A model generated the notes under the pieces. It did not search any database and was not told the DNA's origin. It saw nothing but the letters and a program-made list of their open reading frames with translations. Below are positions 15,642 through 49,155 of a stretch of 64,000 bases of DNA, piece by piece; position 1 is the stretch's first letter, and each line of letters begins with the position of its first letter. Both the position numbers and the translations under genes were made by a program. The DNA comes from an uncultured Muribaculaceae bacterium (lineage in GTDB: Bacteria > Bacteroidota > Bacteroidia > Bacteroidales > Muribaculaceae), in the NCBI GenBank assembly GCA_910578665.1, contig CAJTQU010000007.1, positions 26,179 through 90,178 on the forward strand. Direction: 5' to 3'.

Positions 15642-16163
15642 TTATTTGCCGTTAAACACTTTGTCTACAGAGATACCACGGTTCTGTGCCACCTGTGCCG
15701 GGCTGCGCAGTTCAGCCAGCGCCGCGATAGTGGCCTTAACCAGGTTGTGGGGGTTAGAAGAGCCCTTGGACTTGGCAAGGACGTCGGTAATACCCACGCT
15801 CTCAAGCACGGCACGCATAGCGCCGCCGGCTTTCACACCGGTACCGGTAGAAGCAGGCTTGAGGAATACGCGGCTGCCGCCGAATTTGGCAAGCTGCTCG
15901 TGGGGTATGGTACCCTTGTGCACAGGCACGCGTATCAGATTCTTCTTAGCAGTCTCCACGCCCTTGGCGATAGCGGCTGTCACCTCGTTGGCCTTGCCCA
16001 GGCCCCAGCCGATCACACCGTCCTCGTTACCCACTACGACGATGGCGGCAAAGCTGAACGCACGGCCACCCTTGGTCACTTTAGTAACACGGTTGATGGC
16101 TACCAGGCGGTCTTTCAGCTCCAAATCATTTGTCGATTTTACTCTATTGTTCTTTGTTGCCAT
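15642..16163 (-). CDS. rpsE: 30S ribosomal protein S5
   Basis: 173 aa, ...[34 protein letters not shown]... Confidence 0.95.
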
Positions 16164-16169
16164 GTGTTA

Positions 16170-16511
16170 TTAGAATTTAAGACCGGCCTTGCGAGCTGCA
16201 TCGGCCAATGATTTTACTCTTCCGTGGAACAGATAACCGTTACGGTCAAACACCACCTCGGTGATGCCCATCTCCTGTGCTTTCTGGGCCACTTTCTCGC
16301 CAACCTTGGCAGATATCTCTACCTTAGTGCCCTCTGCAATGCCTTTTGAGTCGGCAGCGCAAAGTGTGCGGCCGTTCAAGTCATCGATAAGCTGCACGTA
16401 GATGGCCTTGTTAGAGCGGAACACGCTCATACGGGGACGCTGCGCAGTACCGCTGATGCGGCCGCGGATACGCGCCTTGATTTTATTTCTTCTTGCTATC
16501 TTTGATACCAT
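16170..16511 (-). CDS. rplR: 50S ribosomal protein L18
   Basis: 113 aa, ...[20 protein letters not shown]... Confidence 0.95.
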
Positions 16512-16527
16512 TGTAGTCGATTTTTAA

Positions 16528-17082
16528 TTATTTGGCGTTAGCCGATTTGCCTGACTTGCGACGGATAATCTCGCCGACAAACTTAATACCTTTACCCTTA
16601 TAGGGTTCGGGCTTGCGCAGCGAGCGTATTTTGGCACATACCTGGCCAAGCAGCTGCTTGTCGGGGCTTTCGAGGATGATGAGCGGGTTTTTGTTACGCT
16701 CGCTCTTTGCCTCTATCTTAATCTCCTTGGGCATCTTGATATAGATAGCGTGAGAGAATCCCAGCGAAAGCTCAAGCACCTGGCCTGTGGCAGTCGCGCG
16801 GTAACCTACGCCCACGAGCTCCATCTCTTTCTTGTAGCCCTCGCTCACACCCACTACCATGTTGTGGATAAGTGCGCGGTACAAGCCGTGCAGAGCACGG
16901 TGCTCGCGGTTGTCGCTCGGACGTGACACCAGGATACGGCCGTCCTCTACCTCTACCTTGATATCGGGATTTATAGTCTGTGAGAGTTCGCCTTTGGGAC
17001 CCTTCACTGTCACTGTGTTATCTTTAACCTGAATGCTTACGCCGGCAGGTACTTCGATGGGTGCTTTACCTATTCTTGACAT
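16528..17082 (-). CDS. rplF: 50S ribosomal protein L6
   Basis: 184 aa, MSRIGKAPIEVPAGVSIQVKDNTVTVKGPKGEL... Confidence 0.95.
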   Translation of the reverse strand: MSRIGKAPIEVPAGVSIQVKDNTVTVKGPKGELSQTINPDIKVEVEDGRILVSRPSDNREHRALHGLYRALIHNMVVGVSEGYKKEMELVGVGYRATATGQVLELSLGFSHAIYIKMPKEIKIEAKSERNKNPLIILESPDKQLLGQVCAKIRSLRKPEPYKGKGIKFVGEIIRRKSGKSANAK

Positions 17083-17100
17083 TTCAATACCTCCTTCTGA

Positions 17101-17499
17101 TTAGTAAACATAGCATAATACTTCGCCGCCGATTTTGAGTTCCTTGGCGTCTTTGTTAGTCATAACACCACGTGAAGTGGAGAGCACGGCGATACCCAGT
17201 CCGTTAAGCACACGGGGCATATCCTTATAGCCTGTGTACTGGCGGAGGCCGGGACGCGACACGCGCTTGAGGCCCTTGATGGCGTTAACCTTGTCAACGG
17301 GATCATACTTCAGCGCAATCTTGATCACGCCTGAGGGGGTATCACCCTCCATAAACTTGTAGTTGAGGATGTAACCCTGCTCGAAAAGGATCTTGGTAAT
17401 CTCCCTTTTCAGGTTTGACCCGGGAATTTCTACCACACGGTGACCCGCCTTGATAGCGTTCCTGAGTCGTGTTAAATAATCTGCAATAGGATCAGTCAT
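17101..17499 (-). CDS. rpsH: 30S ribosomal protein S8
   Basis: 132 aa, MTDPIADYLTRLRNAIKAGHRVVEIP... Confidence 0.95.
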   Translation of the reverse strand: MTDPIADYLTRLRNAIKAGHRVVEIPGSNLKREITKILFEQGYILNYKFMEGDTPSGVIKIALKYDPVDKVNAIKGLKRVSRPGLRQYTGYKDMPRVLNGLGIAVLSTSRGVMTNKDAKELKIGGEVLCYVY

Positions 17500-17758
17500 T
17501 TTTTTTGATGTTAAATTGATTCAGATTTTCTGAACAATATTTAATACTCTCTGATTTCAAATTTTATAACGGAACCACGCCTAATCCGCCCCGTGAGAGG
17601 AGGATGCCTCACAATATCGGGCATGGAGGTCGCTCCAATTTATTGATAACGGAGCGACTTCCATGTTTATTGTGCGGGCGGCCGAATTTATTTTACAGTG
17701 ACATGCGCACTGCGAAACAGCAAAACTGCCGCGCGGATTCCGCAATGGGAGGTGTGTC

Positions 17759-18061
17759 TTACCAGCTTGCTTTCTTAACACCGGGGATAAGGCCGGCGCT
17801 GGCCATCTCGCGGAATTGTATACGAGAGATACCGAACTGGCGCATATAGCCTTTCGGACGGCCTGTGATGGAGCAGCGGTTGTGCAGGCGCACGCGAGAA
17901 GCGTTCTTGGGCAACTTCTGAAGTTTGGTCAGAGCCTCGTAGTCGATGTTGCCTTCGGCATCAGCCAGGGCGGCCTTCTTAAGGGCAGCCTTACGCTCGG
18001 CATATTTTGCCACCATGCGCTGACGCTTTACCTCGCGGGCTTTCATTGATTCTTTTGCCAT
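17759..18061 (-). CDS. rpsN: 30S ribosomal protein S14 (long form)
   Basis: 100 aa, [28 protein letters not shown]...GVKKASW. Confidence 0.93.
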
Positions 18062-18064
18062 CTG

Positions 18065-18610
18065 TTATTTCTCAGTTTTAAAGGGTAAACCAAACTGTTT
18101 GAGCAGGGCGAAGCCCTCTTCATCTGTCTTGGCAGAAGTCACAAAAGTGATATTCATACCGTTCAGCTTGGACACACTGTCAATGTTAATCTCAGGGAAG
18201 ATAATCTGCTCTGTGATACCCAGCGTATAGTTGCCGCGTCCGTCAAGCTTGGCGTTAATGCCCTTGAAGTCGCGGATACGGGGCAGAGCCACGCGGATGA
18301 GACGCTCGAGAAACTCGTACATACGGTCGCGACGAAGTGTCACCATAACGCCGATGGGCATTTTCTTACGCAGCTTGAAGTTCGAGATGTCTTTACGCGA
18401 GAGTGTGGGCACAGCCTTCTGGCCTGTGATAGCTGTCAGCTCGTTGATAGAAGTCTCTATGAGTTTCTTGTCCTGAGTGGCATCGCCCAGACCCTGGTTG
18501 ATAACTATCTTCTCGAGCTTGGGCACCTGCATCACAGTAGTATAGCCGAACTCTTTGACAAGAGCAGGCATAATTCTCTCCTTATAGTCTTTGCTAAGTG
18601 TTGTGCTCAT
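18065..18610 (-). CDS. rplE: 50S ribosomal protein L5
   Basis: 181 aa, ...[16 protein letters not shown]... One-nt TAATG overlap with rplX. Confidence 0.95.
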
Positions 18611-18927
18611 TACTTGATCTCCTCTCCGGATTTTTTAGAATAACGTACTTTCTTTCCGTCCACAAACCTGTAGCCGATACGAGTGGCAGTGCCGCTCTTG
18701 GGATCTATCAGGCTGAGATTGGAAATGTTGATAGGGGCTTCCATCTCCACGATGCCGCCCTGGGGGTATTTGGCAGTGGGCTTGGTGCTCTTCTTGATGA
18801 TGTTCACGCCTTCTACGATGGCGCGGCCTTTCTTCACGATAATTTCGAGCACGCGGCCTTTCTTGCCCTTGTCGTCACCGGCATTAACTATGACGTTGTC
18901 ACCCTTTTTGATATGATATTTTGCCAT
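18610..18927 (-). CDS. rplX: 50S ribosomal protein L24
   Basis: 105 aa, [29 protein letters not shown] (KOW motif). Confidence 0.95.
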
Positions 18928-18951
18928 TTTCTTTACTCTGTTTAAGTATTG

Positions 18952-19317
18952 TTAAAGCACTTCGGGAGCCAGTGATACAATCTTCATGTTAGTGGCGCGC
19001 AGCTCGCGTGCCACGGGGCCGAAGATACGGCTGCCGCGGAGCTCGCCGGCGTTGTTGAGCAGTACGCAGGCATTGTCGTCGAAACGGATGTAGGAACCGT
19101 CGGCACGACGTATCTCCTTCTTGGTACGCACGACCACTGCCTTGCTCACTGTGCCCTTCTTGACATCGGAAGACGGGATGACGCTCTTAACCGATACGAC
19201 GATGATATCGCCGACCGAGGCGTAACGACGGCCTGTGCCGCCAAGTACATGGATACAGAGGGCCTCTTTGGCGCCGCTGTTATCTGCTACTGTCAATCGA
19301 GATTCAGTCTGTATCAT
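18952..19317 (-). CDS. rplN: 50S ribosomal protein L14
   Basis: 121 aa, [27 protein letters not shown]... Confidence 0.95.
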
Positions 19318-35357: not shown

Positions 35358-36563
35358 TCAATCCTTGATACAATCGAGAATATCTGCCGCCACATCTGCC
35401 TTAGATTTGGCCGGAAAAGGCACAGCCTCCCCCGTAGCCGCACATATCATCGTAATTTTATTGGTATCCTTACGGAAGCCGGCTTCAGGATCTCGCAGAG
35501 AGTTTAGCACTATCCAGTCCATATTTTTTCTGGCTGCTTTCGCACGCGCATTTTCAATCTCATGGTCTGTCTCCAGCGCAAATCCTACCACGACCTGTCC
35601 CGGACGCTTACGCGCACCCAGTGTGGCCGCAATATCCGGATTCCTGACCAGCGACAGTGTCAATTCTTCCCTGCCCTCGCGCTTTATCTTATGGTCGCTG
35701 CAGGCCGCAGGCCGGTAATCTGCCACAGCCGCGCACAATATGGCTATATCAGCCGTGTCAAAATGTTCTTCACACGCAGCCATCATCTGCGCCGCACTCA
35801 CGACATCAATACGCCTTATACGGTCTGACCCTGGCACCGGCAGCTCTACAGGACCGGCCACAAGCACAACTTCGGCACCGAGAGATGCCGCGCGTCCGGC
35901 CAGGGCAAAGCCCATCTTTCCGCTCGAATAATTACCGATAAAACGCACCGGGTCAATATTTTCGTACGTAGGTCCGGCCGTAATTAATATTTTTTTACCT
36001 TTCAGATGCTCTCCCTCGGCAAAATAATTCTCTAGCACATCAAAAATACGCTCCGGCTCTTCCATACGCCCCTTGCCCACCAGACCTGATGCCAGTTCGC
36101 CTGCCTCGGGTTCGATGATCTCCACCCCGTCAGCCCTCAGTGTAGCCAGGTTGCGTCGTGTAGACGGATGAGCAAACATATCCAGATCCATTGCCGGCGC
36201 GACAAACACTTTTTCTTTAGCGGACAGATAGGTTGTAATCAGCATATTGTCTGCCACTCCGTTTGCCATTTTCGCTATCGTAGAGGCTGTGGCCGGAGCT
36301 ATCACCATGGCATCTGCCCACAACCCGAGGTCCACATGGGAATGCCATTCGCCCGTGTTTGCCGTGAAAAACTCGCTGACCACGGGATTTCCGCTCAATG
36401 ACGAAAGTGTGACAGGAGTGATAAACTCCTTGCCATGCGGCGTAATTACGACCTGGACCTCGGCTCCGGCCTTGCGCAGCAGACGCAGCAGCGACACACT
36501 CTTATAGGCGGCGATACCGCCGCTTATACCCAATATGATATGTTTGTCTTTCAGCGCACTCAC
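35358..36563 (-). CDS. coaBC: bifunctional phosphopantothenoylcysteine decarboxylase / phosphopantothenate-cysteine ligase
   Basis: 401 aa, ...ILGISGGIAAYKS... flavoprotein N-domain plus a CoaB C-domain. Confidence 0.9.
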   Translation of the reverse strand: MSALKDKHIILGISGGIAAYKSVSLLRLLRKAGAEVQVVITPHGKEFITPVTLSSLSGNPVVSEFFTANTGEWHSHVDLGLWADAMVIAPATASTIAKMANGVADNMLITTYLSAKEKVFVAPAMDLDMFAHPSTRRNLATLRADGVEIIEPEAGELASGLVGKGRMEEPERIFDVLENYFAEGEHLKGKKILITAGPTYENIDPVRFIGNYSSGKMGFALAGRAASLGAEVVLVAGPVELPVPGSDRIRRIDVVSAAQMMAACEEHFDTADIAILCAAVADYRPAACSDHKIKREGREELTLSLVRNPDIAATLGARKRPGQVVVGFALETDHEIENARAKAARKNMDWIVLNSLRDPEAGFRKDTNKITMICAATGEAVPFPAKSKADVAADILDCIKD

Positions 36564-38566: not shown

Positions 38567-38666
38567 TAAAAAAAATTTCACATCTGCCCTATCGCCCTCC
38601 CCAAATCAGCCCAAATCAGCAAACAATGTCTGCCCTCAAACATTCTATAACAGCCGGACCAGTGTT

Positions 38667-38698
38667 ATATTCCATTATGAAAAATCATAATGGAATAT
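38667..38698 (-). terminator. 14-bp hairpin downstream of tatC (possible operon terminator)
   Basis: ATATTCCATTATGA (38667-38680), a 4-nt loop, then TCATAATGGAATAT (38685-38698). It is AT-rich and has no clear U-tract. Confidence 0.35.
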
Positions 38699-38759
38699 TA
38701 TACGAACACTCAAAACAAGGTTATTTCAGTATTTATACGGCAACTCTATAAATTTGCAG

Positions 38760-39548
38760 TTAAGATTTTCGCTCTACCGATCTTATTACTCTTATGCTAA
38801 TTTCGTATAACAGATACAACGGGATGGCAACAAGTATTAAAGTCATAATATCAGGAGGCGTTATTATCGCTGCAATAACACATATGGCAAGAAATGCGTA
38901 ACTGCGATATTTTATCAGATATGATGATTGAACCAATCCCATCCGCCCTAATACATAGGCTACGACAGGCAGTTGGAACACAAGACCCATCATAAGCGTA
39001 AGAGTCACAAAAGTAGATATATAGCTATCAAGTGTTATAGCGCTATGCACTTTGTCTGCCACCGAATATGTTCCCAGAAATCTGAAAGATATTGGAAATA
39101 AGACAAAATAACTCATAAATATGCCAATAATGAAAAGCAGATATATTATACAAACTATCTGCACGGAATATTTCTTCTCGTTATCTAACAAAGCTGGCGA
39201 AACGAATTTAAACAATTCATAGAGAATGAACGGCGAAGAACAAAACAAACCCAAATAAACCGAAGTAGTTATATGTGTCATAAACTGACTTGACAAATCT
39301 GTCGCTATCAAGTCTATATGAAATGCTCCAAAACTGAATTCCGGCTTAAACGTACGTATTAAATCTTCCAACCAACGATAAGTGCAGAAGTCAGGTTCGC
39401 TTGGAGACAGCAATACGGAAAACGTTACGTCTTTAAAAGCAAATATCAAACATGCAAATATAAGAGTTACAGCCAATATGCGAATTAATATTTTTCGGAG
39501 GACATCAAGATGCCCTCCGAATGTCATGAAAGATTTTTCCGATGACAT
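38760..39548 (-). CDS. tatC: twin-arginine translocase subunit TatC
   Basis: 262 aa. The N-terminus ...GGHLDVLRKILIRILAVTLIFACLIF... matches the HLxELRxRLI start of TatC. Six hydrophobic segments. Starts 3 nt after the tatA stop. Confidence 0.85.
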   Translation of the reverse strand: MSSEKSFMTFGGHLDVLRKILIRILAVTLIFACLIFAFKDVTFSVLLSPSEPDFCTYRWLEDLIRTFKPEFSFGAFHIDLIATDLSSQFMTHITTSVYLGLFCSSPFILYELFKFVSPALLDNEKKYSVQIVCIIYLLFIIGIFMSYFVLFPISFRFLGTYSVADKVHSAITLDSYISTFVTLTLMMGLVFQLPVVAYVLGRMGLVQSSYLIKYRSYAFLAICVIAAIITPPDIMTLILVAIPLYLLYEISIRVIRSVERKS

Positions 39549-39551
39549 AGA

Positions 39552-39782
39552 TTAATTTTTTCGTTCTGGAGAAGTAGCCGGAGATTCCTCCGGCAATATA
39601 TCACTATCTGGCATGTCATTGCCTTTTATATCAGTTGAAACCTCTTTCATTCCGTCTTTGAACTCACGGACTCCCTTTCCAAGTCCGCGCATCATTTCGG
39701 GAAGTTTTTTACCTCCAACTAAAAGGATAGCGAGTCCTCCTATCAATAACAACTCGGTAGTACCAATAAAACATAGCATCAT
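39552..39782 (-). CDS. tatA: twin-arginine translocase subunit TatA/E
   Basis: 76 aa with one TM followed by an amphipathic helix: ...LLLIGGLAILLVGGKKLPEMMRGLGKGVREFKDGMKE... ATGA overlap with the upstream 95-aa gene. Confidence 0.85.
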   Translation of the reverse strand: MMLCFIGTTELLLIGGLAILLVGGKKLPEMMRGLGKGVREFKDGMKEVSTDIKGNDMPDSDILPEESPATSPERKN

Positions 39783-40066
39783 AACAAAACAATCATTCCG
39801 GCGTTACTATATATATTACAGTCAGAAAAATCTATTTCCCAACTTCCATTATCCGCACTTTCCCAAGCATACTTGACAGACATTGACGACCACCAATTAC
39901 GAAAAGAAGTCTCTGTCTCAGCCAAATCTTTAACAAGTTTCTCGTAAAGATCTTCATTATCAGATGTGAGAATCTTTGCTAACTCAGCAAGTCCACTTTT
40001 TCTCTCAAAAAGCATCTGTATTGTATCTCTTTCTTGAGAATTAACCTGACCAATAAGTTTTTTCAT
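39779..40066 (-). CDS. small cytoplasmic accessory protein of the Cys-repeat peptide system
   Basis: 95 aa, MKKLIGQVNSQERDTIQMLFERKSGLAELAKILTSDNEDLYEKLVKDLAETETSFRNWWSS... Helical and acidic, with no signal peptide. Size and context fit my recollection of the 'CXXX repeat peptide modification system protein' family. Confidence 0.5.
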   Translation of the reverse strand: MKKLIGQVNSQERDTIQMLFERKSGLAELAKILTSDNEDLYEKLVKDLAETETSFRNWWSSMSVKYAWESADNGSWEIDFSDCNIYSNAGMIVLL

Positions 40067-40145: not shown

Positions 40146-40631
40146 TCATGCCCTGAACATATAATATGCTCTTATTCTGCAATTACTGCCACAATTATTG
40201 AAAACAACACTCTTTTCCCATAATATAATCAAGTCACTCCAATTTCCATTTTGAGAACAAGACTCAATTATACCGATCTGTTTACCATCCATTATAATCT
40301 TATTATCATTGACCTGGCAGTTGACAGTCTCAACTGTAGTCTCTTGATTATCTAGATAGCTAATTAAAAAACCGTCTACCAGATTTTCACCTATGGGAGC
40401 CACACATATATATGTATACGTATATGCGTTATAGTCAACAATTTGATCTTGACCACCTTCTTCTGAATAAAGGTCTATCTGTTTACATTCCATCCATAAA
40501 CCTGGAAACTGGTTTGTAATACCAGATGTTGTTTCACTTAGTTCGTCACTATTGTCATCTTTACTACATGATGTTATAATAATATTAGCAAAAAACAGGA
40601 TTATAAAACTCAGATATTTTATTTGTTTCAT
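40146..40631 (-). CDS. lipoprotein with an acidic post-Cys stretch (possible surface-export signal)
   Basis: The ORF-track start 40640 is a TTG. The ATG at 40629-40631 gives MKQIKYLSFIILFFANIIITSCSKDDNSDE... (lipobox ITSC, then SKDDNSDE). 161 aa, no recognisable family. Confidence 0.65.
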   Translation of the reverse strand: MKQIKYLSFIILFFANIIITSCSKDDNSDELSETTSGITNQFPGLWMECKQIDLYSEEGGQDQIVDYNAYTYTYICVAPIGENLVDGFLISYLDNQETTVETVNCQVNDNKIIMDGKQIGIIESCSQNGNWSDLIILWEKSVVFNNCGSNCRIRAYYMFRA

Positions 40632-40646
40632 TTTTAACAATTTAAA

Positions 40647-41603
40647 TTATTGATTAATAATACAATCTAAAGGATCAAGATAGTCAATTTCAGCAATGGA
40701 AATTCCTTCAACAATCGGGGTTCTATCACTTTTTAAATTTTCCAGAAAATTTTTTGAAGCATTCCGTTCGCAATGCGCAAGAAGACACTGTATTCTACCA
40801 GGAGTATTCACTTCGCGCGTTACGCGCTGATTAAGCCAAACACACCTCTTACACTGATATGCATCACATATCTTACATATGGGAGCATGGTTAATATCAA
40901 AAAGATAATGATTCTTTATGAATATACCATCTGTTAGTGAACCTATATTCTCCATGCCGACACTATAAAATCCGGGACATATATAAAATAAGCCATCCGG
41001 AGATACCGTGATCGATTCAACAGCCGCATTACAGTTATTCATATCCTTAAGTATCACACGGTCGGTAATAAGATTAAATTGAACCGCATTGCCTTGTGAA
41101 TACAACTCTGACAATAGAGGTATCAGACTATCAAGAAACGATTTATATGCAATGACTTGGCTCTCAGAGACTGACTCTATATCCGTAATAACTACATTAA
41201 GACGACTCAGCCGGTGTAAAAGCTCCCTCATTATATCACCACTTTCAAGTAGATCTTTAAATGTTGTGCGAATTACGCAAGTGATATCCAATTTCAATCT
41301 AAAATCATAAAGATCTGTCCATGAATCGAAAACTATTATTTGAGCTTTATCTAAAGTTTCCTTTACAGGGTAGTCAAAGGGCATAATCTTTATATGATCG
41401 ACACTCTCAACAACATCGTTTATTTCCACTGGCAATTCTTCTCGCGGATAAACAAATTGGATATAAAGATTTTCCAGCATACTGAATCTAACAATCTCAT
41501 GAAGAGTGTCAATATCAGTAAAACTGTCTTTAATACTTTGATTTGGATAATGACAAAAAGATATGGCATTAGCACCAAGTGGAACAATCAGATATTTCAA
41601 CAT
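40647..41603 (-). CDS. SPASM-type Cys-cluster protein lacking the radical SAM CxxxCxxC motif (second maturase component)
   Basis: 318 aa. The N-terminal half has a single Cys (ISFCHYP). The C-terminal half has ...NNCNAAVESITVSPDGLFYICPGF..., ...PICKICDAYQCKRCVW..., ...QCLLAHCER... Seven-nt overlap with the rSAM gene. The size fits my recollection of the 'CXXX repeat peptide maturase' family. Confidence 0.6.
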   Translation of the reverse strand: MLKYLIVPLGANAISFCHYPNQSIKDSFTDIDTLHEIVRFSMLENLYIQFVYPREELPVEINDVVESVDHIKIMPFDYPVKETLDKAQIIVFDSWTDLYDFRLKLDITCVIRTTFKDLLESGDIMRELLHRLSRLNVVITDIESVSESQVIAYKSFLDSLIPLLSELYSQGNAVQFNLITDRVILKDMNNCNAAVESITVSPDGLFYICPGFYSVGMENIGSLTDGIFIKNHYLFDINHAPICKICDAYQCKRCVWLNQRVTREVNTPGRIQCLLAHCERNASKNFLENLKSDRTPIVEGISIAEIDYLDPLDCIINQ

Positions 41604-42817
41604 AACTTATAATTGTTATCCCGAGCCGTCAAAGAGGTACTACAAAGTTTTTCTTCAGACTCCAGTTTGTTAAACAATTTATTCCAGTAATAATTATTTG
41701 CTCTCACACGCGCCTTGTGCATTTTGCAGATAGCGACCGACCGTTGATATATAGTGTCTGTATCAGCTGAATCATAGTTCTCTCCTTGACACCAGGCACA
41801 TCCACTGGCCACTTCGCATTCTATACACTCACGAGGTGACTGGCTTAACCGATCAAGAGATAGGAATGGCCTAAGAAGATCATTGTTGATACCATCTACA
41901 ACATTGCCGATGACGATCGGCTTCTTCTCTCTTAACGAATAAGCTGCAAAGCGAGTACATGGGTAAAAAAGACCTTTTGCATCAACAGCTAACATCCGTC
42001 CTGCTCCACACCAATTCTGATTGTCTACTTTAGAATCCAATGGTTTGCCAATGCTTTCTGAAAAAAATGAACAAGCATGATCCTCATAGTATCCGTGATT
42101 GATAATTTCATCTGCCAGTTCAATCAGCTGCTTTTCGAAAAGCTTATCATCACCTTCTTTCCAAACATTCTCAAATACGACATTGATATTAACCTCTTTG
42201 ATACCTAATGAATAAAGATGCAGCACACTCTCTCTGATATATGGAATATCAGCTGAACTGATAGTGACTTTAGTAGCTCCGTCCGGAAATTGAGACAGCC
42301 AAAGCGGTATGTTACGCACAACATCGTCATAGCTCCCCCGTTCAGGACCGCTACCTTTCCAGATCCTATTTAAGTCATGTTTTCGTTTTGTCCCATCAAT
42401 CGTTATCCCAATAGATAGATGTTCTCTATTTTTTTCTATGTATCGCTGTACTTTTTCACTATCGTAATTGATCCCATTAGTAGAGAACGAAAATCTGTAT
42501 GAATTGAACCATTTATGATTTAGTCGGAACATTTCGGTTTTTATGTAATCACAAATCTTATCAACAAGATCAATTTCTAGAAATGGTTCGCCCCCGATAA
42601 AATCCCATACCACCGAATCATCTTTAAAATCATCTTCATGGATAAGTATGTAATCAATTGCTGCCTTAGCAATTTTCCACTCCATTCGTTCGCTTTCATT
42701 TTTTCCTACAAGATAGCAATACTTGCAAGCAAGCTGGCAATCTTTCGTAACTATGAAAGTAATATTTTTGGTTCTACTTTCTCGCCAAGGGCGTTGTTGC
42801 TCCTTAATAGCACTCAT
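41597..42817 (-). CDS. radical SAM / SPASM-domain peptide maturase
   Basis: 406 aa with CxxxCxxC at C27/C31/C34 (TKDCQLACKYCY) and GGEPFL. C-terminal auxiliary-cluster cysteines: ...NWCGAGRMLAVDAKGLFYPC..., ...CIECEVASGCAWCQGENY..., ...CKMHKA... It lies directly downstream of the two Cys-repeat precursor genes. Confidence 0.85.
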   Translation of the reverse strand: MSAIKEQQRPWRESRTKNITFIVTKDCQLACKYCYLVGKNESERMEWKIAKAAIDYILIHEDDFKDDSVVWDFIGGEPFLEIDLVDKICDYIKTEMFRLNHKWFNSYRFSFSTNGINYDSEKVQRYIEKNREHLSIGITIDGTKRKHDLNRIWKGSGPERGSYDDVVRNIPLWLSQFPDGATKVTISSADIPYIRESVLHLYSLGIKEVNINVVFENVWKEGDDKLFEKQLIELADEIINHGYYEDHACSFFSESIGKPLDSKVDNQNWCGAGRMLAVDAKGLFYPCTRFAAYSLREKKPIVIGNVVDGINNDLLRPFLSLDRLSQSPRECIECEVASGCAWCQGENYDSADTDTIYQRSVAICKMHKARVRANNYYWNKLFNKLESEEKLCSTSLTARDNNYKLC

Positions 42818-42883
42818 ATAATGTGTATTTACATAATAAAGAAATGCAAGTATACCGAAACAAATTCGATATACTCACATTGA

Positions 42884-43201
42884 TTATCTACTTCCATATT
42901 TACATCCTCCGACACATCCTGTTTTGCAAGATGACAAACAAGCTCCTTTACATCCCGATTTACAGGAGTATGGGTGATACTCCATATTTGCACGGCAAGA
43001 GTCTCCACATGATGTTGAGCATGTGGAGCCACAACCAGAACAACCAGAAGACGAACCACCGCCTCCTCCACCTGGTTCATCCTCTGGATCACACGATGTC
43101 AGAAATGTCGGAACAATAGTTAATGCTAATATGGGCATAATTGCCGATACACTCTTCGAGAAAAACTTTCTTCTCGAAATCAGATTTTCATTGCCAATCA
43201 T
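42884..43201 (-). CDS. Cys-repeat precursor B: Tat signal + lipobox + Gly linker + 11-Cys CxxxC core
   Basis: 105 aa: MIGNENLISRRKFFSKSVSAIMPILALTIVPTFLTSC|DPEDEPGGGGGGSSSG CSGCGSTCSTSCGDSCRANMEYHPYSCKSGCKGACLSSCKTGCVGGCKYGSR. The twin-arginine motif is SRRKFFSK, and the lipobox is LTSC at Cys37. Confidence 0.8.
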   Translation of the reverse strand: MIGNENLISRRKFFSKSVSAIMPILALTIVPTFLTSCDPEDEPGGGGGGSSSGCSGCGSTCSTSCGDSCRANMEYHPYSCKSGCKGACLSSCKTGCVGGCKYGSR

Positions 43202-43203
43202 AA

Positions 43204-43479
43204 TTATTTACCAGAGTTATAACACATACCTCTACATGTTCCCTGGCATAAACCACTGCAACTAGTGCATGCATCACTACATTTTCCCGAGCAAGTTCCA
43301 GCACATCCGTAGCAACCACCACGACACGTTGTACAACTTGTAGCATCTGAATTAAGAGAATGGGCCAGGACAGGCGCATTAGCCAGAACTATCGTACCTA
43401 AAATAGGCAGGACTCCTTTCGCCGCGTTTTTAAAGAACTCGCGTCGTGACTGTAATTCTTTGTTTCGATTTTTATCCAT
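43204..43479 (-). CDS. Cys-repeat precursor A: Tat signal + 11-Cys CxxC/CxxxC core
   Basis: 91 aa: MDKNRNKELQSRREFFKNAAKGVLPILGTIVLANAPVLA|HSLNSDATS CTTCRGGCYGCAGTCSGKCSDACTSCSGLCQGTCRGMCYNSGK. The twin-arginine motif is SRREFFK, with a VLA-type signal peptidase I site. The stop is 2 nt before the precursor B start. Confidence 0.8.
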   Translation of the reverse strand: MDKNRNKELQSRREFFKNAAKGVLPILGTIVLANAPVLAHSLNSDATSCTTCRGGCYGCAGTCSGKCSDACTSCSGLCQGTCRGMCYNSGK

Positions 43480-43529: not shown

Positions 43530-43775
43530 AAAAAAAGCGTGAAAGCCTGTACCTGTTGCTCTTTCAACTGATAGAGGCTCTCGCATTGCCCGTCTGAGTA
43601 GAAAGAGCAACGTCGAAGCCTCACGCTGTATGATAATACAAGAGCCGGCTCAAACCAGAACCAACATGTGTGTACCATACCCTATAAGGCATCTACCGTT
43701 GCTATTTCCTGACTCAGACAATTAGAATTTGCGAGATTCCTATCAGTCAAGAAAAAGCGTAAGTAAACGCTTTTT
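43530..43775 (-). promoter_or_regulatory. structured 5' leader of the Cys-repeat/rSAM/Tat operon (candidate attenuator, riboswitch-like element or sRNA)
   Basis: A two-tier hairpin at 43537-43626 (GCGTGA/TCACGC plus GTTGCTCTTTC/GAAAGAGCAAC) is followed on the minus strand by U7 (43530-43536). There is 22 bp of three-segment long-range complementarity between 43568-43599 and 43712-43746. A second hairpin, AAAAAGCGT/ACGCTTTTT, is at 43752-43775. Confidence 0.45.
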
Positions 43776-43836
43776 AATTATGTCTGCATCCCACCCACTT
43801 CAACCCGTATCGGGCTTCGACAAGCGATATGCGTCG

Positions 43837-43868
43837 CAAAGTTATAATTTTTATTTTACTAGCACAAA
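43837..43868 (-). promoter_or_regulatory. Bacteroidota-type promoter for the island operon
   Basis: On the minus strand, -33 TTTG (43865-43868), a 20-nt spacer, and -7 TAACTTTG (43837-43844). About 355 nt upstream of the precursor A ATG. Confidence 0.55.
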
Positions 43869-47977: not shown

Positions 47978-48061
47978 CAGCGCAATTGGTATAGGCACAA
48001 GCCAGTTACGGCATCTGCACACCGGCAAAACAGAATAACAAATAAAATTTACAAATAACAA

Positions 48062-48253
48062 ATGATCATTGTACAAGTAAAAGAAGGCGAAAACATTGAA
48101 AAGGCCTTGAAGAAATTCAAACGCAAATTTGAGCGCACCGGCATCGTGAAAGAACTTCGCGGTCGTCAGGCATTTGAAAAACCCTCTGTAACAAACCGCA
48201 AGAAAATGATTAAGGCGGTTTACGTACAGAAACTGCGCCAGGGCGAAGAGTAA
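48062..48253 (+). CDS. rpsU: 30S ribosomal protein S21
   Basis: 63 aa, MIIVQVKEGENIEKALKKFKRKFERTGIVKELRGRQAFEKPS... Confidence 0.92.
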   Translation: MIIVQVKEGENIEKALKKFKRKFERTGIVKELRGRQAFEKPSVTNRKKMIKAVYVQKLRQGEE

Positions 48254-48301
48254 AAATACTCTCACCCCTTTTTATTATTGTTTTCATTCTTTTTGAACCG
48301 C

Positions 48302-48349
48302 ATACAGATACAGGAGGCGTTGGAATTCCAACGCCTCCTGTATCTGTAT
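48302..48349 (+). terminator. perfect 48-bp palindrome (24-bp arms) downstream of rpsU
   Basis: ATACAGATACAGGAGGCGTTGGAA|TTCCAACGCCTCCTGTATCTGTAT. Every position was checked and pairs. No T-tract follows. Confidence 0.55.
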
Positions 48350-48583
48350 ATACCTTAATCTAATTTTATTACTTGTAACTCTGCTGTAATATAGAGCATT
48401 ATAAAATTAACGGTGTACTCGTGGCGTACTAATTAATTGAAGAAATCGAAAACAGGATACCCGATTTTAGGATTTTAATGGGAGTTAGTTATCTTTAATG
48501 CGATTCTTTTTTGGTAGGTTTCCAAAGATTCGAGGCTTGAATAGAAAGGCAATAAGAAAAAATTGCTAATTTTGTGTTACGAT

Positions 48584-49155
48584 ATGGCACAGTTCAATCA
48601 ATATGACTCTCTGATTGACCTCTCGGTGATAAAGGAATTTTGCAGAGAGAATGGCCGCATAGTCTATTATCCCAAAGATGATGTTTTTGTCCATCAGGGA
48701 TGTGTAGCCAAGTATCTCGGAGTTGTAGAATCAGGGTATTTCAAATATACGACACCCACATCATCGGACAATGAAGCTGTCGTAGGGTTCGCTTTCGAGG
48801 GGGAAATTGTAGCTGACTATTATAACTCGTTCAACACATACCATCGGAAATCACGATAAAGGCAGGTAACAATGCCTCAGTATCTCAAATCAGAACCGGA
48901 GAGGCACGAAATATATTCAATTCTTTCTTCGAGGGAAACCTTTCCGCACTCAATGGTACTCTTTTCAGTGAGATTTATTCACGTTATATTGAGCTTTACC
49001 GCAAGACGCCGGCAGAAAGATACCTTGCTCTTATAACAATGTATCCTCAGATTTTAAACATCGTTTCGTTGCGAGATATAGCCTCGTATTTGCTCGTTAC
49101 TCCGGTATATCTAAGCCGAATCCGAAAAAATCTTGTTAAAAATTCCCACGAATAA
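48584..49155 (+). pseudogene. Crp/Fnr-family transcriptional regulator, frameshifted
   Basis: Frame A (ATG 48584) encodes a cNMP-binding-like N-domain, ...YPKDDVFVHQGCVAKYLGVVESGYFKY...GFAFEGEIVADYYNSF, and stops at 48857-48859. Another frame continues IPSEITIKAGNNASVSQIRTGEARNIF...LRDIASYLLVTPVYLSRIRKNLVKNSHE* (HTH) to 49155. A frameshift near 48840 joins them. Confidence 0.6.

Follow-up and report, generated by a model that had tools for sequence, protein, structure and literature searches.

What is a protein translocase doing at the end of an operon for peptide maturation? The question is raised by a 64,000-nucleotide stretch of DNA from an uncultured Muribaculaceae bacterium (GenBank assembly GCA_910578665.1, contig CAJTQU010000007.1, positions 26,179 to 90,178), which we call the window. 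Here eight tightly packed minus-strand genes, among them a radical S-adenosylmethionine (rSAM) enzyme and two Cys-rich precursors, have as their last two members tatA and tatC of the twin-arginine translocation (Tat) pathway. The original prediction, made from the letters of the window alone, took this for a Tat system dedicated to the substrates of a pathway resembling those for peptides that are made on ribosomes and modified after translation (RiPPs). Having compared the locus with its relatives, we consider it probable that tatA and tatC are an integral module of a cassette of about 5 kb, horizontally spread in the Bacteroidales and built for CXXX-repeat proteins, in which Cys recurs at every fourth residue. 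The linkage is conserved whether one starts from the maturation genes or from the translocase, which supports the view that tatAC is part of the peptide-maturation operon and no chance neighbour.

The identity of the operon follows from curated protein families. On the minus strand, the maturase of the CXXX-repeat target family, with radical SAM and SPASM domains (41597..42817), scores 622.7 bits against TIGR04115 (cut-off 350) and also matches PF04055; the CXXX repeat peptide maturase partner with its SPASM-like C-terminus (40647..41603) scores 213.3 bits against TIGR04119 (cut-off 150); and the 95-aa accessory protein, a CXXX repeat peptide modification system protein (39779..40066), scores 91.7 bits against TIGR04116 (cut-off 50). 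These three genes form a contiguous set in the window, all above their curated cut-offs. On the same strand lie the 76-aa TatA (39552..39782) and the 262-aa TatC (38760..39548), both of what we call the cassette type. Each of the two aligns with its family along its full length. TatA matches PF02416 at 48.9 bits (cut-off 21) and barely reaches the cut-off of TIGR01411 (54.0 against 53.9). For TatC the score against PF00902 is 204.6 bits, with profile positions 2-208 of 208 covered, and that against TIGR00945 is 158.5 bits (cut-off 132.7); solved TatC structures match it at E = 1e-29. When the window was searched by phmmer with both the cassette and the chromosomal types of TatC and TatA, no tat genes were found in its 64 kb beyond this one tatAC, nor did a search for the genes that accompany the chromosomal type elsewhere (fabD, L21, L27, GDSL lipase) find any of them in the window.

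The junctions between these genes are as tight as had been proposed. The plus strand reads TCAT at 39779-39782, placing the ATG of tatA across the TGA of the accessory gene (ATGA), and only 3 nt separate the tatA stop from the first ATG of tatC; on conspecific contigs, gene callers prefer the next ATG, 21 nt further on, which makes the gap 24 nt. Among related loci, with start codons picked heuristically, the ATGA overlap between the accessory gene and tatA recurs in 23 of 58, the gap at this junction is 30 nt or less in 51 of 58, and tatA and tatC lie no more than 30 nt apart in 43 of 47. Such conserved tight or overlapping junctions fit with coupled expression, and the gene spacing suggests that tatAC is co-transcribed with the rest of the cassette; our scan of the window flagged no terminator-like sites between the rSAM gene and tatC. 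The low guanine-plus-cytosine (GC) content that tatAC was said to share with the rSAM genes is likewise there: 0.362 for tatC and 0.411 for tatA, next to 0.351 for the accessory gene and 0.388 for the rSAM gene; dnaN has 0.502 and the window as a whole 0.497.

How general is this arrangement? A forward census, which took one genome per species and scanned with a maturase alignment, was based on the best 80 of at least 600 candidate stretches, and yielded 80 Bacteroidales loci with maturases 71-84% identical. Their carriers include Muribaculaceae, Segatella copri (a complete genome), Prevotella merdae, Xylanibacter and Paraprevotella. In this best-80 set, 68 species loci have enough downstream sequence, and 55 of them show tatA-tatC immediately behind the accessory gene; with 7 loci found earlier via TatC, the linked loci come to 62 in total. 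A reverse census, in which metagenomes were scanned with cassette-type TatCs, returned 80 contigs, 77 of them with room upstream, and the accessory gene lies just upstream of tatC in 67 of these 77. The fetched loci are cited below by L numbers.

The translocase of the cassette also has a history of its own. In neighbour-joining trees, built with no bootstrap and no outgroups, one clade holds all cassette-linked TatCs but two. Identity within this clade is 42-100% (median 59%), whereas identity to the chromosomal Muribaculaceae type, which is found in a conserved fabD-tatA-tatC setting (L002, L174), is 30-44%. The TatC phylogeny that the original prediction had asked for thus separates the cassette lineage from the chromosomal one, at a median identity of 37%. 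Both pairs occur on a single contig in L002 and in the independent assembly L003, about 6 kb apart and with TatCs 35% identical, so that in at least the L002 genome the cassette tatAC is a second Tat system. The two exceptional TatCs (L038:5439-6257 and L069:4645-5436) belong to a third lineage, 41-43% identical to both other clades, and occupy the usual tatAC slot. This points to an independent recruitment of the L038/L069 Tat pair and, therefore, to selection for tatAC in that slot.

The two main TatC types differ in specific residues as well. While 54 TatC positions are conserved jointly in cassette and chromosomal types, 17 are fixed differently between the clades (for example E111 versus L and Y127 versus G). 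Among them is the Glu of the FELP motif, which is replaced by Gln (FQLP, residue 192 in the window) in 99% of cassette TatCs and 0% of the chromosomal type, solved TatCs having Glu. The Glu of the cytoplasmic loop is kept, with SPALLDNEKK of the window aligning with APGLYDNEKK of a solved TatC. We take this loop residue, implicated in recognition of the twin-arginine (RR) motif, to be the counterpart of E. coli E103, and the buried Glu of FELP that of E. coli E170. The VGG hinge of TatA noted in the original prediction (LLVGGKKLPE) is indeed present in the window, but it is a sublineage trait: V replaces F in 10 of 61 cassette TatAs, all from the sublineage of the window, and FG(G) is retained in 51 of 61, which rules out VGG as a signature of the cassette Tat.

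The candidate substrates of the translocase are the precursors, which carry twin-arginine signals. Precursor 1 (91 aa, 43204..43479, minus strand) has the twin-arginine signal ELQSRREFFKNAAKGVLPILG, with the motif SRREFFK, followed by CXXX repeats. Precursor 2 (105 aa, 42884..43201, minus strand) has the signal ISRRKFFSK, with the motif SRRKFFS, then a lipobox (LTSC), an acidic tail (DPEDEPG) and CXXX repeats; it is probably a Tat-exported lipoprotein. An RR-motif scan of the window passed precursor 2 and two other open reading frames, which we discounted without testing: one of 103 aa (35407..35718, plus strand) lying opposite a 401-aa gene at 36563..35358, the other a 1626-aa protein with its RR motif within a lysine/arginine-rich N-terminus. 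Precursor 1 failed the charge filter of the scan, and its signal was read from the translation. With that proviso we agree with the earlier view that the two Cys-repeat peptides are the only obvious Tat substrates here, and take them to be the only convincing RR-signal proteins in the 64-kb window.

Across the family the signal is conserved to an unusual degree. Aligning 130 precursors on the RR motif, which all of them contain and which served as the anchor, gave the consensus KNEELQSRR(E/D)FFKKAAKxALPILGA, into which precursor 1 of the window fits. F occupies +3 in 98% and +4 in 94% of them, K occupies +5 in 89%, and the LP pair at +12/+13 is present in 85% and 93%. Since this is more conservation than Tat needs, the RR signal region may double as a recognition leader for the maturase. 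Beyond the signal the precursors are highly diverse: they have hypervariable cores, occur as one to five per locus and range from 80 to 434 aa, although successive Cys residues stand at i+4 in 85% of Cys pairs. About 27 of them, including precursor 2 of the window and amounting to about a fifth of the products, have a lipobox with at least three D/E at +2 to +8. This acidic tail after the lipobox Cys resembles the Bacteroidetes surface-lipoprotein export signal, and it is this resemblance that suggests surface display. Given lengths of 80-434 aa and the fifth that would be Tat lipoproteins, the description as a RiPP-like peptide pathway proves too narrow; the products look like secreted proteins and lipoproteins rather than classic small RiPPs. 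The largest ones (L062:517-1818, 434 aa, and L076:8717-9964, 416 aa) each combine an RR signal with CXXX repeats on either side of a middle domain of about 200 aa that lacks repeats; NCBIfam gave no match for this domain, and so no backing for the guess that it is a known paralogous one.

Taken together with the enzymes, these features allow a mechanism to be proposed. Precursors would be made with the unusually conserved twin-arginine signal, and their region of Cys at every fourth residue would then be modified in the cytoplasm by the maturase, its partner and the 95-aa accessory protein. The likely result is thioether-type cross-links, as suggested by the kinship of the maturase to PapB, SCIFF and QhpD. 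Both the maturase and its partner lack a signal peptide and radical-SAM chemistry is cytoplasmic, so that modification must precede export. Intramolecular cross-links would block threading through Sec, which gives a rationale for Tat: the cross-linked product, unfit for Sec, would leave through the cassette's own TatA and TatC, made in step with the accessory protein by way of the overlapping or abutting reading frames. Release would be by signal peptidase I or, for precursor 2, be replaced by lipidation at LTSC. What our data show directly is the identity of the genes, their two-way linkage, the distinct TatC lineage, the conserved signal and the ABC exporters of distant relatives described below; the chemistry and the sequence of steps are inferred, as are co-transcription and a preference of this Tat for cassette substrates.

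Several observations speak against a translocase reserved for the cassette. The 13 of 68 cassettes without tatC still keep RR signals, which are thus found in precursors both with and without a linked tatAC, and presumably another Tat serves them. Since these cassettes are scattered over the rSAM tree, tatAC has been lost several times. Traces of the process can be seen in a 65-aa tatC remnant in which an internal deletion has fused the N-terminus to the last helix, with tatA intact (L074:3862-4059), and in a locus with tatA only, tatC having been deleted (L062:5117-5317); L056 has a cassette without tatAC and a chromosomal-type tatAC 6 kb away. From the other side, about 10 of the 77 tatCs of the cassette clade stand apart from any cassette, and in the tree they are nested within that clade at six or more points. 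Two of these stand beside a conventional 457-aa RR-signal protein (L154, L156), one among ordinary chromosomal genes (L173), one is interrupted by insertion sequence-like genes (L161), and three are lone tatC genes (L127, L139, L152). Clade members in such ordinary contexts mean that the cassette Tat is probably a competent general translocase. Moreover, the distances of rSAM enzymes and TatCs correlate weakly (Mantel r = 0.25). Of the idea of a substrate-dedicated Tat, then, the part that stands is conserved linkage (55/68 and 67/77), whereas the 13 tatC-less cassettes with RR signals and the roughly ten unlinked tatCs argue indirectly against strict exclusivity.

The strongest competing explanation starts from these same facts: the cassette might carry a portable general-purpose Tat that guarantees its host a translocase, has no substrate preference and serves any protein with an RR signal. 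The unlinked clade tatACs, the RR signals of tatC-less cassettes and the TatC residues common with the chromosomal type, including the loop Glu, are all what it would lead one to expect. It does not explain why L002 and L003 retain the pair although a chromosomal tatAC nearby would make it redundant, nor the 17 positions fixed differently between the clades, including Q for E in FELP, nor a signal region conserved well past the usual Tat consensus, and we regard it as a serious but rather unlikely account. Far less likely still is that an ordinary housekeeping tatAC simply had an rSAM operon land alongside it. That the window contains a single tatAC would agree with such a chance adjacency, but the comparative census makes it improbable, the same gene order being found in dozens of species with differing neighbourhoods; tatAC also has the low GC of the island, its TatC lineage is distinct from the syntenic fabD-linked chromosomal type, and another TatC lineage was recruited at the same slot.

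One could also suppose that the RR N-terminus is mainly a maturase leader and that TatA and TatC are degenerate or do something other than export, for instance retention or quality control. The conservation of the signal beyond Tat needs (for example LP at +12/+13), the Q of TatC at a normally conserved buried Glu and the decay of tatC in some lineages could all be read in this way. Against it stand the full-length profile match of TatC, the 54 conserved positions that it has in common with the chromosomal type, the presence in about 27 precursors of a lipobox and acidic tail, which are sensible only after export, and the maintenance of TatA and TatC across a clade as divergent as 42% identity; we give this reading very little credence. 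An integral Tat module within a spreading cassette for CXXX-repeat proteins therefore remains the account that we favour, at the level of confidence stated at the outset.

The proposed horizontal spread of this roughly 5-kb, mobile-looking cassette is suggested by its composition and settings. In the window it forms an island (about 38.6-43.9 kb) of GC 0.32-0.44 against about 0.50 on both sides, and cassette GC lies under flank GC in 62 of 70 loci (mean 0.447 versus 0.510). Genomic neighbourhoods of the cassette differ between genomes, while in the species of the window the island keeps a fixed place, with dnaN on one side and a glmU-like gene on the other: of 23 conspecific contigs read, 21 were grouped as a single neighbourhood, and the one further site displayed does not differ in gene order. 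The locus is also present in GCA_021768115.1 (contig JAETOG010000004.1), identical proteins are found on hundreds of contigs, and its nearest relatives are metagenome-assembled genomes (MAGs) of Muribaculaceae. As for the usual traces of mobility, the window was found to have no tRNA, the open reading frames of at least 90 aa beside the island include neither an integrase nor a transposase, and no convincing direct repeats flank it. A second GC dip (0.387) lies at 48001-49000 of the window, about 4 kb past the island, where conspecific contigs have rpsU and a small protein that binds cyclic nucleotide monophosphates.

Known systems help to place the cassette. With the CXXX-repeat peptide modification system of NCBIfam it shares TIGR04115, TIGR04119 and TIGR04116 and the i+4 repeat of Cys. 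It differs in that the window precursors score 42.4 (precursor 1) and 17.0 bits (precursor 2) against the target model TIGR04117, both under the cut-off of 50. That system is defined by genome context and, judging by the names of its models, tatAC and the leader RNA described below fall outside the definition. In the literature that we could search, we found no experimental description, product, chemistry or export route for the CXXX-repeat system, and no paper joining Tat to it or to any rSAM RiPP or peptide-maturation system. Relatives known to form thioethers are PapB (freyrasin, CX3D/E motifs), SCIFF and QhpD (QHNDH gamma subunit), which likewise combine a homologous rSAM/SPASM maturase, Cys-rich substrates and cytoplasmic modification before export. 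The window maturase scores 187.2 bits against the PapB model (NF047865, cut-off 340), 107 against SCIFF (425) and 96 against QhpD (453), and since these values are far under the cut-offs it belongs to a sister family rather than to any of the three. The usual exit of rSAM products is an ATP-binding cassette (ABC) exporter; to our knowledge, the PapB, SCIFF and QhpD systems rely on leader cleavage and ABC-type export, not on Tat.

For a substrate-linked second Tat translocase the nearest precedent is phoD-tatAd-tatCd of Bacillus subtilis (PMC3827258). Like the cassette pair, it is a TatA/TatC pair with no TatB in an operon with its substrate, and it is additional to another Tat in the genome, a situation that for the cassette is seen in L002. 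The differences concern the substrate, a phosphodiesterase in the case of PhoD as opposed to the predicted rSAM-modified Cys-repeat proteins, and the nature of the unit, which here is a spreading one in Bacteroidales. A survey of TatC published in 2013 found multiple tatC loci in about 5% of species, or 2% outside Bacilli, with Cytophaga hutchinsonii as the only member of the Bacteroidetes with two (PMC3827258).

More distant relatives of the maturase show other ways out of the cell. At E <= 1e-30 its family counts at least 381 representatives, and many of these are fused to the partner domain (about 700 aa). We inspected five distant contexts (L089-L093), all of them devoid of tat genes. In four, those of Thiospirochaeta perfilievii (L089) and of L090, L091 and L092, the system has ABC exporters or agr-type regulators as neighbours. 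L089, L090 and L092 share with the cassette a maturase of this family, which in them forms one protein with the partner domain, and L090 shares the accessory protein too; they differ in their ABC exporters, agr-type regulators, short-leader precursors and lack of tat genes. The translated precursors of L089 and L090 are 52-53 aa long, have short leaders and lack a signal peptide. As far as the sampled contexts go, export by Tat would appear to be a Bacteroidales-specific replacement for ABC export. The fifth context, a 39%-identical maturase homologue in a Bacillota MAG (L093:8001-9260), lies among phage-tail-like genes (Mtd_N) next to an integrase, which suggests a prophage-borne version of the system.

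At its head, the cassette appears to have a control region. Upstream of the precursors stands a Bacteroides-type promoter motif (TTTG-N19-TAnnTTTG; 43837..43868, minus strand). The window has 6 matches to this motif against 1.28 expected, and no other falls within the island; its -7 box is conserved over 32 aligned loci (alignment columns 28-35). Between this motif and precursor 1 lies a putative structured 5' leader RNA of about 300 nt (43530..43830, minus strand), with six helices, the terminal stem being followed by a U-tract. Nucleotide-level matches to it were found in 104 of 179 sources (the fetched loci and the window), for example at L016:226-608, L008:5849-6238 and L002:6608-6962 and at about 100 other loci. 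Covariation is strong. In the consensus of 38 pairs that RNAalifold predicts, pairing holds in 93.9% of cells, versus 41-46% when the partners are slid, and double changes occur at 19 pairs versus 6-10 when slid, the observed values being reached by 0 of 500 shuffles. A search of the island, leader RNA included, against Rfam gave no match at E <= 1. The element looks like an undescribed cis-regulatory RNA or small RNA, with the form of an intrinsic terminator at its end.

This leader RNA is not tied to the precursors alone. A precursor follows within 450 nt downstream in 73 of 106 leader hits, a different first gene in the rest. An extra copy (L020:15684-16053) lies directly upstream of two Ser/Thr protein-kinase-like genes (16086-17207 and 17218-19017), and in L057, L133 and L127 the leader RNA precedes small helix-turn-helix (HTH) proteins; the copies ahead of kinase and HTH genes mean that it is not exclusive to CXXX precursors. 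In L010, L018, L046, L014 and L034, the leader RNA is separated from the precursors by outer-membrane-protein-like proteins of 176 aa or by lipoproteins of about 490 aa. Further down the operon, a 17-bp hairpin with a T-rich tail (42843..42881, minus strand) stands directly past the stop of precursor 2. It is among the 8 sites found by our terminator-like scan in the region, against 2.9 expected, and is probably an attenuator, setting how much precursor transcript is made relative to enzyme transcript. An AT-rich 19-bp inverted repeat 57 nt past the tatC stop (38662..38703, minus strand), which the same scan did not flag, is weak evidence for a possible operon end.

Two of the proteins within the operon resisted classification. 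The 95-aa accessory protein is predicted by AlphaFold2 (mean predicted local distance difference test score, pLDDT, 84.6) to consist of a strand, a long alpha-hairpin and a beta-hairpin. No solved homologue was found by sequence, and the best fold match of the model in the PDB is no better than E = 0.2; identities as a protein like the RiPP recognition element (RRE) or PqqD, or like TorD, are unsupported by either comparison. The second is a 164-aa Sec-type lipoprotein (40146..40640, minus strand) with no family match, encoded between the maturase partner and the accessory gene. It is not conserved across loci, with weak matches in L009 and L046 only, and was rejected as an immunity protein, the weak profile match spanning the signal peptide only. 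Its slot is variable, other loci having extra precursors there or nothing.

A bolder version of our account would join several of these threads. In it, the RR signal doubles as the recognition leader of the rSAM enzyme, TatA and TatC have co-evolved (the FELP Q and the clade-fixed residues) to specialise in cross-linked Cys-ladder proteins and surface lipoproteins, and the whole unit is switched by the undescribed leader RNA of about 300 nt with its built-in terminator. We put this combination forward tentatively and consider that it may well fail in one or more of its parts.

Our results bear on questions that extend beyond a single Muribaculaceae locus. The leader RNA, if confirmed, would be a new class of regulatory RNA in Bacteroidales. 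A natural second Tat pair in Gram-negative bacteria offers a handle on the substrate specificity of Tat, and the cassette that carries it is found widely among the abundant Bacteroidales of the gut, Muribaculaceae and Segatella copri among them. Above all, an rSAM family would here be coupled to the pathway for folded proteins, with the translocase travelling with the cassette, and the comparison with relatives that lack it hints at when and why modified products need Tat.

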